Assembly: GCA_963833125.1 (NCBI GenBank)
Contig: CAWHWX010000034.1
Location: 32,001 to 96,000, forward strand
Reading direction: 5' to 3'
From: Candidatus Bathyarchaeota archaeon
GTDB lineage: Archaea > Thermoproteota > Bathyarchaeia > 40CM-2-53-6
Length of the DNA stretch: 64,000 nt
Shown: in pieces, positions 29,065-50,758 of the stretch
Layout: every line of letters starts with the position of its first letter
Position numbering within the stretch: the stretch's first letter is position 1
The notes under the pieces: model-generated
What the model saw: the letters and a program-made list of their open reading frames with translations, nothing else
Databases searched by the model: none
What the model was told of the DNA's origin: nothing
Position numbers and translations under genes: made by a program

Positions 29065-29622
29065 ATGGCAGACGTTGCGTCAGCCGAACTAATCGGCACT
29101 AGGCTGGTCGTCTGGGACTTCGCTGAAGCAGTGCGGCTCTACCGTATGGGCTTCTTCGGGAAACCAGTCGGAATTCCCAAACCTAAACCCGAGCAGGAAT
29201 TCAAAGCCCCGCTAATACTCGACCTCATGGAAGGCCTGTACCTTCTTGACCGGAAGATCATCAAAGTTACAGACGCAACGACGAATAAGTTAGTGAGCAG
29301 GGCTAAGCTGCTGAAACTGGCCAACCGCACTTACAAACAATTCAACCTAGGATATGCCGCCTACGAGAACCTCCGCGAGAAGGGGCTCATTGTGACGCCG
29401 GGGATTAGGTTCGGATCTGATTTTGCGATCTACGAACATGGCCCCGGCATCGACCACGCGCCCTTCATCGTGACTGTGAAGAAGGAGCAGGAAACAATGG
29501 GCCCCTTCGAGGTCGTTCTTGCAGGACGACTTGCAACAACGGTCCGAAAACAATTCACCATAGCGGTACCAAATCGACGCAACAACGTGGATTACCTAGT
29601 TTTCCGATGGTTCAAAGCGTAA
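29065..29622 (+). CDS. endA: tRNA-splicing endonuclease, catalytic subunit
   Basis: FGSDFAIY..GPGIDHA, GRLATTVRK (Y/H/K triad), N-terminal GFFGKPVGIPKPK loop. Confidence 0.93.
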   Translation: MADVASAELIGTRLVVWDFAEAVRLYRMGFFGKPVGIPKPKPEQEFKAPLILDLMEGLYLLDRKIIKVTDATTNKLVSRAKLLKLANRTYKQFNLGYAAYENLREKGLIVTPGIRFGSDFAIYEHGPGIDHAPFIVTVKKEQETMGPFEVVLAGRLATTVRKQFTIAVPNRRNNVDYLVFRWFKA

Positions 29623-48197: not shown

Positions 48198-49632
48198 TTA
48201 GGCATTTGTTCGATCACCGCCGGTCTTCCTAACCAGTTCGTCGAACCTTGGGTCTGATGTGATGGTGTCGTAGAATGGTCCTTGTTTAACTTGAAATGGA
48301 GTAATTGAGCGAAGTTTGAAAGCCTTCTCGAGCCATTCAAAGGCGCGGTCCAAGTTGCCCAGCTTCGAATGAATGATTGCTAGTCGGTGAGGTTCTAGGC
48401 TATCACGGGTAGAGGACTCTTCACACTCTTTGAGGATTTGTTCGGCCTCCTTTGTCCTGCCAGAGATCGCGTAAACGAGTGCCAGCTCAACTCTCCAACG
48501 TATTGATTGGGGTGCTCGATGCATTACCCAATGCAACTCCGCAAGCGCCTCGTCAAACATCCCCTTAGCCAAGCAGGCATCAGATCGGTTTGCATGGGCT
48601 GGTACGAAATTCTGATCTAGCTCCAGTGATCGGTCAAGTTCTTTCATCGCATCGTCATAGCGCCGGGCGTAGATGAAGAGGCCGCCGGCGTAGGCGTGTA
48701 TCATCGGCGACAGGGGATCCAAGTCCTCTGCGATCTTCAGTTGATCTATTGCCTCCTCTATTCGGCCCAGGCTTAGGAGATGGATGGAATACCAATGATG
48801 TGCCTTCGCGTAGCCAGGATTAGTTCTTATGGCTTCGGAAAATTCCTCTTCCGCCGCGGACCAGTTCCATTCGTTGCTAAGGATGTTTCCAAGTGAAGTA
48901 TGGGCTTCGGCAAGAGCTCCGTCAAGGCTAAGCGCTTTCGTCAAAGCGTTCCTTGCTTTATCATAGCCATCTGTTGAAGTAATGTATCCGTGGTTTACAA
49001 GTACAACGTAACAGTCAGCCAGTCCAGAGTAGGCCCGTGCAAAGTCAGGGTCCTTCTTTATCGCATCTTCGAAGTACTTGACCGCTTTCATCAGCGAATC
49101 TCTAGACCGTTCGTTCCAACAGAATCTCCCTTTCAAGTAGAGCGTGTACGCGTCGAGGTCTCCTGTCAGTCTCTTGTCAAGGCGTTCTTTTTCTATCGGC
49201 AAGAGTTTGACTTTGAGTGCTGCCGCTACTTCCTTTGAGATCTCGCTCTGAATTGCGAATATGTCTTTCATTTCTCTATCGAACGATTCTGACCATAGAT
49301 GGTCACCGCTCTCGGAGTCTATCAGTTGAACGGTGATTCGTAGATTGTCCCCCGCTTTCCGTACGCTTCCCTCGATTACAGTTCCAACTGTAAGCTCTCT
49401 TGCGATTTGATCGATTTTCTTCTGGCCGCCCTTATAGCCCATGACGGAAGTCCTTGCAATCACCTTCAGCCCACCTATCTTTGTCATAGTCGAGATCATT
49501 TCCTCGGTCAGCCCGTCCGAAGTATTCGTCCTTAGCGTCAGGGCTGATGCTTTGCAAGGGCAAAACGGCAACTCTATGTTTGTCTAATGTTGACAGTGTT
49601 GAAGAGAATGCTGGAGGAACAAAGCTCTTCAT
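48198..49632 (-). CDS. TolB-N-like plus TPR-repeat protein (no cyclase or kinase domain), frameshift near 49520
   Basis: RVAVLPLQSISPD..DEYF.DGLTEE, VIARTS, EGSVRKAG..LRITVQLID, multiple TPRs, DPRF tail. Confidence 0.88.
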
Positions 49633-49685
49633 ACGATCCGGATCACTTGGCTGCAAGTGTTCTCGCCTAGTCTGGTTTGGTTTGT

Positions 49686-49846
49686 TGGTAGCCCGGGGGA
49701 GATTCGGGCAATTCGGGCGCTTTCGTGCCTCCCGTCGGCAGGTTTCTCCTCTGGTGAGGGGATCCAGAGCCATCTAGTGGCAGGTTTCTGGCGCCAATGC
49801 TATGCATAGTCCCATGTGCGTGGTTTGACCACTACACCACCGGGCT
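49686..49846 (-). tRNA. tRNA-Gln (anticodon CTG) with four BHB introns and encoded CCA
   Basis: Acceptor AGCCCGG/CCGGGCT-A-CCA; D stem GTGT/GCAT; anticodon stem GCAGG/CCTGC with CT-CTG-GA; T stem GGGAG/CTCCC. Introns 49824-49806, 49797-49772, 49763-49744, 49728-49712. T loop reads TT(GCC)CGAAT. Confidence 0.85.
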
Positions 49847-49873
49847 ACCGAATGCAAGCCAGCCCTCGGTAGG

Positions 49874-49888
49874 TATCTTAACGTTTCG
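49874..49888 (-). promoter_or_regulatory. BRE/TATA-like promoter of the tRNA-Gln gene
   Basis: CGAAACG-TTAAGATA ending 28 nt upstream of the mature 5' end. Confidence 0.55.
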
Positions 49889-49978
49889 TTAGACCCGAGA
49901 CTAGTTATTTCAGATCAAACCCAAACTGTACAGGACAAGATTAGAATAGATCGTAGCTTCCCTTCATGCTGATTACGG

Positions 49979-50758
49979 TTGAAACGATCTGGGTCCCTCT
50001 CGCTGCGATTGACGTTGACTGCTGTGAATGCGGCTTTGTACGCGGGGATTGGCGCCTTGTGGACAGTTTTTCCACTAATGATCTTCGGAGTTAGGTTTTG
50101 GCCACAAGTCTTCGCACCTGCCACCTTCGCCATATTGTTTGGGCCCTGGGTTGGAGGGATAGGAGCGGCAATTGGGATATTCCTTGCCGACGTCATCTAC
50201 GGGCACCATGACGCGCTCCTGAGTCTCCTCGTAGGGGTGCCGTCTAATTTCATTGGATTCTTCGTTATTGGATGGCTCACGAACCATGAATGGAAGGGAG
50301 TGGCGAGGCGCATTTTGGTTGCGGTAAGCTTACTGATTCAACCACTCTACGCTATTGCCTTAGTTCTCGGATTGTATTTTCTGTTCGGCGTGGCCACGAT
50401 TGGGTCTTCGACTTCCTACTTGGGACTTGCGGGATTAATTGTCGTTCTCGCCATTGTCTTCCTCATAGTCGTTCGGAATAGATGGGCGGATTTTGAGGTT
50501 GCAGCTTCAATTGGCCTCGCGGTTGGAACGGGGATAATCGGCTTGGGGATTGTGGCTTACAGCGCGATTTTCGGCCTTCCGGTCGCGGTTGGTCTCGGCA
50601 CTAAACCTTTGGCGGGGGCTTTTGTCTATCTGGTGGCGGCTTCAAGCTATTTCACCGAAATTCCGTTCATGGTTGTGTTGACTCCGCCTGTTGCCGCAGC
50701 CTGTCGAGCAGCCTTCCCTAGCCTCCGAGCAATCGACCAGAGAAGCAAGAAAAATTAG
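49979..50758 (+). CDS. ECF transporter S-component (possibly for a CoA precursor)
   Basis: AVNAALY, FGPWVGGIGAAIGIFLAD; first gene of the pantoate kinase cluster. Confidence 0.78.
   Translation: MKRSGSLSLRLTLTAVNAALYAGIGALWTVFPLMIFGVRFWPQVFAPATFAILFGPWVGGIGAAIGIFLADVIYGHHDALLSLLVGVPSNFIGFFVIGWLTNHEWKGVARRILVAVSLLIQPLYAIALVLGLYFLFGVATIGSSTSYLGLAGLIVVLAIVFLIVVRNRWADFEVAASIGLAVGTGIIGLGIVAYSAIFGLPVAVGLGTKPLAGAFVYLVAASSYFTEIPFMVVLTPPVAAACRAAFPSLRAIDQRSKKN

Follow-up and report, generated by a model that had tools for sequence, protein, structure and literature searches.

The closest described counterparts of the gene considered here are the multi-intron tRNA genes of the Thermoproteales and of the Asgard archaea. 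A 2015 review allows archaeal tRNAs "up to three introns" (PMC4390854), the paper on tRNAscan-SE 2.0 mentions "two or three introns" and an iterative search for motifs of the bulge-helix-bulge (BHB) kind, and Pyrobaculum calidifontis is quoted at 1.54 introns for each tRNA gene. For the Asgard archaea, introns are reported in 92-95% of the tRNA genes of three genomes, with several introns in over half (PMC11291895), and a preprint gives 2.20 intervening sequences per tRNA gene and "up to five in a single gene" (10.64898/2026.10.13.758758). We describe here a tRNA-Gln(CUG) gene, apparently interrupted by four introns, on the minus strand of a 64,000-nt stretch of a Candidatus Bathyarchaeota archaeon (assembly GCA_963833125.1, contig CAWHWX010000034.1); the whole stretch is referred to as the window, and the genome holding it as G000. 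The gene had been picked out in an earlier note made from the letters alone. We consider it highly probable that the locus is a genuine, independently transcribed gene of five exons and four introns, ancestral to its genus, of which this copy bears an additional GCC in the T-loop.

The segments along the gene measure 22/19/8/26/8/20/15/17 nt, followed by a final exon of 26 nt. The predicted introns, I1 to I4, are numbered from 5' to 3' on the minus strand.

49686-49846, minus strand: tRNA-Gln(CUG) gene, 161 nt, with CCA encoded in the genome at 49686-49688
49825-49846, minus strand: exon 1, tRNA positions 1-21 (acceptor 5' strand, D-stem 5' strand, D-loop), invariant in 17/17 orthologues
49806-49824, minus strand: I1, 19 nt, at 21/22, pre-tRNA 23-41, central helix GGTC/GACT (4/4)
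49798-49805, minus strand: exon 2, 8 nt, tRNA positions 22-29, invariant in 17/17 orthologues
49772-49797, minus strand: I2, 26 nt, at 29/30, pre-tRNA 50-75, central helix ATAG/CTAG (3/4), a relaxed BHB
49764-49771, minus strand: exon 3, 8 nt, tRNA positions 30-37, containing the anticodon CTG, invariant in 17/17 orthologues
49744-49763, minus strand: I3, 20 nt, at the canonical 37/38, pre-tRNA 84-103, central helix CTCT/GGAG (4/4), both flanking helices 2 bp
49729-49743, minus strand: exon 4, 15 nt, tRNA positions 38-53, invariant except in G022 (A49 paired with a changed T65)
49712-49728, minus strand: I4, 17 nt, at 53/54, pre-tRNA 119-135, central helix CGGG/CCCG (4/4)
49686-49711, minus strand: exon 5, 26 nt (T-loop, T-stem 3' strand, acceptor 3' strand, A73, CCA), containing the aberrant GCC
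49707-49709, minus strand: GCC, a 3-nt T-loop insertion between T55 and C56, a gap in 16/16 orthologues

The gene shares with those of the Thermoproteales, exemplified by tRNA-Glu(UUC) of P. calidifontis and tRNA-Pro(UGG) of P. islandicum (PMC4390854), several short cis introns at canonical and non-canonical sites, a BHB or relaxed BHB at each of them, a predicted crenarchaeal-type EndA of two subunits, and its escape from standard finders. It differs in its number of introns, four against at most three in that literature, and in its host; our census of G000 (below) gives about 2.2 introns per gene against the 1.54 quoted for P. calidifontis. The Asgard genomes resemble G000 in that nearly all tRNA genes are interrupted, over half by several introns, at a mean of about 2.2 per gene, and in D-arm inserts which annotators miss. 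The host, however, belongs to the TACK archaea, another phylum-level lineage, and for that reason its intron load has probably accumulated independently. Further afield, the split and tri-split tRNAs of Nanoarchaeum and Caldivirga (PMC4390854) are likewise built from short pieces through BHB-like junctions cut by EndA, but there separate genes are joined in trans, whereas five exons stand here in normal order within one 161-nt unit. The earlier note had suspected that four introns might exceed the known maximum: the number lies above the classical limit of three given in reviews and within the range now reported for Asgard. In the literature searched, which leaves out most subscription journals, we found no report of tRNA introns or BHB motifs in Bathyarchaeota or Bathyarchaeia, and a search on the wording "four introns" returned nothing relevant. 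Extreme fragmentation of tRNA genes is extended here to a second major archaeal lineage beside Asgard, with the Thermoproteales as the milder, classical case.

The minus-strand sequence given in the earlier note agrees with the window letter for letter. Its reading of the locus as tRNA-Gln(CUG) with BHB-type introns at 21/22, 29/30, 37/38 and 53/54 is borne out by the orthologues described below, and the two 8-nt internal exons and the roughly half-intronic gene are as it described them (82 of 161 nt). The central helices it proposed were reproduced when BHB geometry was tested explicitly, with 4 bp required in the central helix and a cut behind the second base of each 3-nt bulge; all four inserts have bulges of this length and cut. 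I1 has an intron-side helix of 3 bp and no exon-side helix (HBh'-like), while I2 has a strong intron helix of 5 bp, an exon helix of 2 bp, and a central helix reduced to 2/4 in six congeners. I1 and I3 combine a 4/4 central helix with a flanking helix; I4 is paired 4/4 but has flanking helices of just 1 bp in the G000 copy, against an exon helix of 3 bp in relatives, and the deficit of I2 is offset by an intron helix of 4-5 bp. Because lenient geometry rules yield 48 candidates within these 161 nt, the motif alone is weak evidence.

The exon-intron boundaries can, however, be fixed without using the motif, since homologues that lack single inserts have contiguous exons at the corresponding places. 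I1 is missing in this manner from L019, L021 and L142, I2 from the CUG-type genes L028, L030 and L032 as well as from several UUG genes, and I4 from L025 and L034; the 37/38 intron is the only one present in all Gln homologues. Conventional tools overlook the gene, as the earlier note expected, at least as regards ARAGORN and Rfam/Infernal. ARAGORN reported zero tRNAs over the whole window, Rfam/Infernal at gathering thresholds found no tRNA window-wide, and a permissive Rfam scan of 49500-50050 gave no tRNA, its sole match being a chance snoRNA (E 9).

A search of related genomes, which the earlier note had proposed, covered 40 relatives, 22 of them of the same genus. Full-length orthologues (query 1-161, 82-93% identity) are present in 16 of the 22 congeneric genomes, and all have four introns. 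In the alignment of 17 sequences (16 congeners and G000), invariant columns number 68 of 76 in the exons and 35 of 82 in the introns (6/19 in I1, 16/26 in I2, 12/20 in I3 and 1/17 in I4), and indels are confined to the inserts or to the GCC. The sole exon substitution among orthologues is a compensatory T-stem pair, A49/T65, in G022. For each locus an intron-aware solver proposed the splicing and ARAGORN served as independent judge. Spliced in this way, all 16 congeneric orthologues give a valid tRNA-Gln(ctg) upon removal of four introns, and valid tRNA-Gln resulted at 38 of 40 loci overall, the failures being L038 and the window copy, the latter the only one among the 17 orthologues. Thirteen congeners have the fourth intron at 53/54 with a 3-bp exon helix, and G015, G022 and G001 have one at 59/60 instead. 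Gln homologues of other families carry 2-4 inserts, near 9-10/11, 20-22, 24/25, 29/30, 37/38, 50-53 and 57-59, and four-intron Gln genes recur in G033 (two genes), G028, G034, G041 and G042. The four-intron architecture is thus ancestral to the genus, with variants across the order.

In the alignment A1, standard pairs fill 90.6% of the cells of the BHB pairs; with the 3' partners slid, the share is 42-47%. For the central helices of I1 and I3 the paired share reaches 100%. Double-sided changes occur at three BHB pairs, a level matched in 3 of 500 shuffles, and the intron helix of I1 contains two compensatory double changes.

A further sign of maintenance lies upstream of the gene.

49874-49888, minus strand: promoter, a CGAAA resembling the transcription factor B recognition element (BRE) followed by the TATA-like TTAAGATA, ending 27 nt before tRNA position 1

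All 17 of 17 loci have the BRE-like CGAAA and TTAAGATA 28-43 nt upstream, within flanks that otherwise diverge; across the 17 genomes (the window and the orthologous loci L002-L017) the position of the motif is invariant and its sequence nearly so. A conserved promoter amid diverged flanks indicates that the gene is maintained and has a promoter of its own, and the CGAAA..TTAAGATA motif might be used to look for further tRNA genes that lie hidden in the lineage. These observations bear directly on the possibility that the inserts are not spliced out and that what stands here is a pseudogene in decay or a tRNA-like element serving some other role. In favour of such a reading are the failure of the G000 copy as a tRNA, the lack of any spliced product among the observations, and a thermodynamic folding that does not favour the BHBs. 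The exons are nevertheless invariant over 17 species-level genomes in which inserts and flanks diverge, among orthologues a compensatory pair is the sole change in the exons, and the promoter is kept throughout; a 4/4 central helix falls exactly at three of the four boundaries set independently by homologues lacking inserts; and no other tRNA-Gln(CUG) was found in G000. Tested for loss of constraint, the G000 copy shows a single lesion, the GCC. We therefore regard a pseudogene or tRNA-like element as extremely unlikely, and retain the reading of a genuine gene with four introns.

That single lesion is nonetheless consequential. The GCC sits within the last exon, where there is no BHB, and none of the introns accounts for it. 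With the four introns removed and the GCC kept, ARAGORN finds no tRNA; with the GCC deleted as well, the product is a perfect 76-nt tRNA-Gln(ctg). The earlier note had stated that excision of the four inserts leaves a cloverleaf with fully paired stems, and because of the GCC this fails for the gene as assembled, which cannot yield a canonical tRNA. The insertion lengthens the T-loop to 10 nt and shortens the exon-side helix of the fourth BHB from the 3 bp seen in relatives to 1 bp, and the 13 orthologues with a 53/54 intron all have a normal TTCGAAT T-loop. Apart from it, the exons and promoter of the G000 copy are undamaged. Two other ways of splicing the copy were tried and rejected: as a 59/60-type gene its central helix is paired 2/4, and splicing at the second CCCGAA destroys the T-arm.

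It is possible that the GCC is an artefact of assembly or polishing, and that the true gene is as intact as in the 16 congeners, with four splicings leading to a normal tRNA-Gln(CUG), which is the picture drawn in the earlier note. The otherwise unchanged exons and intact promoter would agree with this, as would the absence of the GCC from all 16 orthologues and from all nine contigs that cover the site in the public data compared (two DNA and two RNA runs). Eight of these contigs leave out the three nucleotides at 49707 (five from run X1, two from X2 and one from X17), and the ninth, from RNA run X16, is a 59/60-type gene. One X1 contig is identical to G000 over the 5' half and upstream flank, yet all five X1 contigs over the T-loop are without GCC. 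The bin, moreover, has 7% contamination and near-duplicate contigs, so that reads of the UUG paralogue are present in it. On the other hand, a 3-nt insertion outside a homopolymer is atypical of assemblers, the overlap of 5-7 nt between CUG and UUG genes at the site is too short for a mis-join in the graph, and contigs drop rare variants, for which reason the public contigs can show the presence of an allele and not its absence. We place the artefact appreciably below an even chance, and lean slightly towards the insertion being real.

If it is real, the tRNA might still function, either because a 10-nt T-loop is tolerated or through an alternative 3' splice site. Excision of pre-tRNA 119-138 (20 nt) does give an ARAGORN-valid tRNA-Gln(ctg), whose 7-nt loop starts with CC rather than TT, and the remainder of the gene is undamaged. 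The alternative excision, however, lacks a BHB at the 3' site, where CGGG would face GAAT in the central helix, and would replace the near-universal T54 and T55, while all other T-loops found in G000 fit the usual pattern; a functional product of this kind seems to us quite improbable. The simplest explanation of a real GCC would be a short patch introduced by gene conversion from the paralogue tRNA-Gln(UUG), in whose T-loop intron the 13-mer of the aberrant stretch recurs; tRNA-Gln(UUG) would then read CAG.

This paralogue is represented in G000 by two near-identical genes (C12:19102-19211 and C17:20127-20237), each with two introns, one of 13 nt in the D-loop and one of 21-22 nt at 59/60. 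The 13-mer in question, GAATTGCCCGAAT, forms the 3' end of an intron in the C17 gene. Loci were taken from 17 congeners, in 15 of which the UUG gene was recovered (G001 and G017 were not recovered by the regular expression); the 59/60 intron is present in all 15 and in both G000 copies. Two further genomes bear signs of traffic between the isoacceptors. In G022 alone among the genomes examined, A49...T65 occurs in both the CUG and the UUG gene. In G041, labelled Candidatus Bathyarchaeota, the CUG and UUG genes (L143 and L145) have in common a 23-nt T-loop intron at 59/60, with 22 positions identical; their remaining introns sit at different places, a pattern which indicates recent copying of an intron between isoacceptor genes. 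Judged by these three sequence likenesses (the G022 pair, the G041 intron and the 13-mer), and by the 59/60 intron in the CUG genes of G015, G022 and G001, exchange between the CUG and UUG genes, affecting 3' halves and the T-loop intron, is well supported in the genus. The earlier note had suggested looking for another tRNA-Gln(CTG); neither homology search nor census found a second tRNA-Gln(CUG) in G000.

A broader reading may be put forward tentatively. Bathyarchaeota of this order would have tRNA genes as heavily fragmented as those of the most extreme Asgard, by an independent route; four-intron genes would have become fixed in the genus; introns would spread by gene conversion between isoacceptors; and the window gene would be an abortive conversion, left with a chimeric, non-functional T-loop. 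The signs of conversion on which it draws are the switching of the Gln T-loop intron between 53/54 and 59/60 and the paralogues with near-identical introns. As a whole we place it only a little short of an even chance. If true, the broken T-loop of the window gene would show the cost of intron spread by conversion. The Gln isoacceptor pair is a clean natural case of intron transfer by sequence exchange, a debated route.

The machinery that excision of these introns would need is encoded in G000, in part within the window.

29065-29622, plus strand: EndA catalytic-type subunit, 185 aa, PF01974 at 84 bits, about 20 kb from the tRNA gene

The best solved relative of this protein is 3p1z_B (E 8e-40), colinear over residues 5-184 and with the Y, H and K positions aligned, which we take to be catalytic; 3p1z, like 3ajv, is presumably an Aeropyrum pernix entry. 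A second, divergent paralogue lies on contig C14 (L122 1474-2046, minus strand; PF01974 at 52 bits), and a single PF01139 match (574 bits), in a 500-aa open frame on C16, represents RtcB. According to PMC5829648, only EndA of the (alpha-beta)2 and epsilon2 types cuts non-canonical introns. The two paralogues fit, as far as their sequences tell, a heterotetrameric EndA of crenarchaeal type.

The earlier note expected competition between neighbouring BHBs to impose an order on splicing, and for the middle of the gene this expectation agrees with the exon sharing. BHB2 and BHB3 have three exon bases in common, and BHB1 and BHB2 one. Taking out I1 lengthens the exon helix of I2 from 2 to 3 bp, and taking out I2 lengthens that of I3 from 2 to 5 bp (the full anticodon stem). 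Because neighbouring motifs share the 8-nt exons, removal of I1 should help I2, and removal of I2 should help I3; from this growth of helices we infer a likely order of I1, then I2, then I3, with I4 free. The BHBs of I1 and I4 are independent of splicing context, and to them the expectation does not extend. Under the mechanism that we propose, the conserved BRE/TATA would direct a primary transcript that begins a few bases ahead of position 1, each exon-intron pair would fold into a BHB or relaxed BHB, the two-paralogue crenarchaeal-type EndA would cut within the 3-nt bulges, and RtcB would join the exons. I1 and I4 could be cut at any time; excision of I2 would be eased by the loss of I1, and that of I3 by the loss of I2.

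A comparable order has been established by reverse transcription PCR in the nuclear tRNA genes of Cyanidioschyzon merolae, which likewise have multiple BHB introns, in their case up to three (PMC3728597): introns of the D-arm and T-arm leave before that at 37/38, which matches the order proposed for the Gln gene. C. merolae differs in that the setting is a eukaryotic nucleus with a different endonuclease, some genes are permuted and the order is proven experimentally. The 8-nt exons with overlapping motifs, together with the damaged allele, offer ready substrates for work on EndA specificity and splicing order.

RNAfold was run on the primary transcript and all 14 intermediates of G000 and G016. 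It was dropped as a test, as 3-nt bulges are penalised and a competing CUCUGG/CCAGAG helix, which is not conserved, forms in G000. Thermodynamic folding neither backs nor contradicts the order I1, I2, I3.

Several findings weigh against the interpretation developed above. RNAfold gives the central helices of I2 and I3 a probability of about 0 throughout, and those of I1 and I4 appear in one genome each, in some contexts. In the alignment, the central helix of I2 has 2-3 of 4 pairs, formed in 67% of cells, and its first pair is formed in 0 of 16 distinct sequences. Covariation is thin, since most helices are invariant among these close relatives, and the structure tested was derived from one of the sequences, which favours it. 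Heterotetramer formation and substrate range of the EndA are drawn from similarity alone. No spliced joints were seen in the two DNA and two RNA public runs, from libraries not made for small RNAs, and the two contigs from RNA libraries which cover the gene are unspliced and come from relatives. The best public run contains 17% of the sampled words, so that the GCC is unconfirmed by source reads, and its origin by conversion is argued from one 13-mer and from analogies in other genomes.

The Gln gene is one example of a lineage-wide fragmentation of tRNA genes. In the G000 assembly (3.07 Mb, 39 contigs, 87.8% complete, 7% contamination) ARAGORN finds 7 tRNAs by default and 30 when one anticodon-loop intron is allowed, and Infernal finds 18 over its cut-off. 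CCA is encoded in 16 of 17 detected tRNA genes checked. We carried out a census in three stages. A 7-bp acceptor stem with T8 and NCCA occurs at 2774 sites, against 2414 in reversed sequence; addition of a T-arm with at most one intron leaves 54 sites (52 distinct 3' ends), against 2 in the control; and of 51 anchors of at most 270 nt, 46 were solved and ARAGORN-validated and five were unsolved, three longer than 270 nt having been skipped. Since the strict solver, which solved about half of the anchors, also gave 222 spurious solutions on one long control region, only ARAGORN-validated products were accepted. The genes are distributed as follows.

0 introns: 3 genes
1 intron: 9 genes
2 introns: 16 genes
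3 introns: 13 genes
4 introns: 3 genes
5 introns: 2 genes (doubtful)

The 46 genes contain 102 introns in total (2.2 per gene) and on average 52 inserted nt, in counts that redundant contigs inflate and that include some wrong parses; the control contained no anchors of at most 270 nt. Two tRNA-Pro(CGG) genes (C12:23991-24165 and C17:28989-29164) and a tRNA-Pro(GGG) gene (C16:326836-327018) are predicted to have four introns each and are ARAGORN-valid, so that the Gln gene is not the sole four-intron gene in G000. Given these, the 16 congeners with the gene and the other families, four-intron genes are not exceptional in this lineage. The solver parses of a 230-nt "five-intron tRNA-Ala" and of a 186-nt gene on C9 were rejected as unnatural, and a motif-free spliced alignment of the 230-nt gene gave no resolved parse.

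With E up to 1e-4, the standard model detects 5-27 tRNAs in each of the 40 relatives, including 12 and 15 in two that are rated 100% complete. Set beside the 7 (ARAGORN) and 18 (Rfam) tRNAs against 52 anchored 3' ends in G000, these numbers confirm a suspicion of the earlier note, that the tRNA set of the lineage is under-annotated. Soils, peat and sediments are rich in Bathyarchaeota, for which metagenome-assembled genomes (MAGs) are almost the sole source of knowledge. Because standard models see 5-27 tRNAs, both quality criteria based on tRNAs and inferences on codon reading will be systematically wrong for these MAGs unless intron-aware tools are used.

Some features of the census genome may be recorded separately. 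Near-identical tRNA genes recur across C12/C17, C6/C18/C29, C19/C21 and C2/C3/C16, which suggests strain redundancy in the bin that inflates gene counts. The three intron-less tRNAs all lie on C28 (57281-57354, 110482-110556 and 34940-35013) and one of them, a compact tRNA-Pro(CGG), repeats in intron-free form the four-intron Pro(CGG) genes of other contigs. C28 might stem from a foreign or contaminating source, though it has a predicted three-intron tRNA-Cys. A tRNA-like locus of 233 nt (C19:73417-73649, minus strand; C21:4858-5090, minus strand; L146) comprises an acceptor stem, a T-arm with an insert at 59/60, CCA and about 155 nt in addition, with repeated ATGACGA and CTGA motifs resembling C/D boxes and no Rfam match. 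Of 41 genomes of the order, 31 have it conserved to 72-97% across some 190-230 nt, well beyond what is seen in the Gln introns. It might be a tRNA with functional small RNAs lodged in its introns.

Directly downstream of the tRNA gene, at 48198-49571 on the minus strand of the window, is a gene for a TPR-repeat protein. Its best named matches, at 59% and 56% identity, are in two MAGs labelled Candidatus Bathyarchaeota, both of which hold the same Gln genes with three or four introns, ARAGORN-valid once spliced. In the loci of these named MAGs (L043 and L044) the tRNA gene is not beside the TPR gene and is located elsewhere in the genome. Other relatives of the protein are mostly bacterial (Gemmatimonadota, Acidobacteriota, Aminicenantes; 31-48% identity), and the TPR-repeat gene may have been acquired by horizontal transfer.

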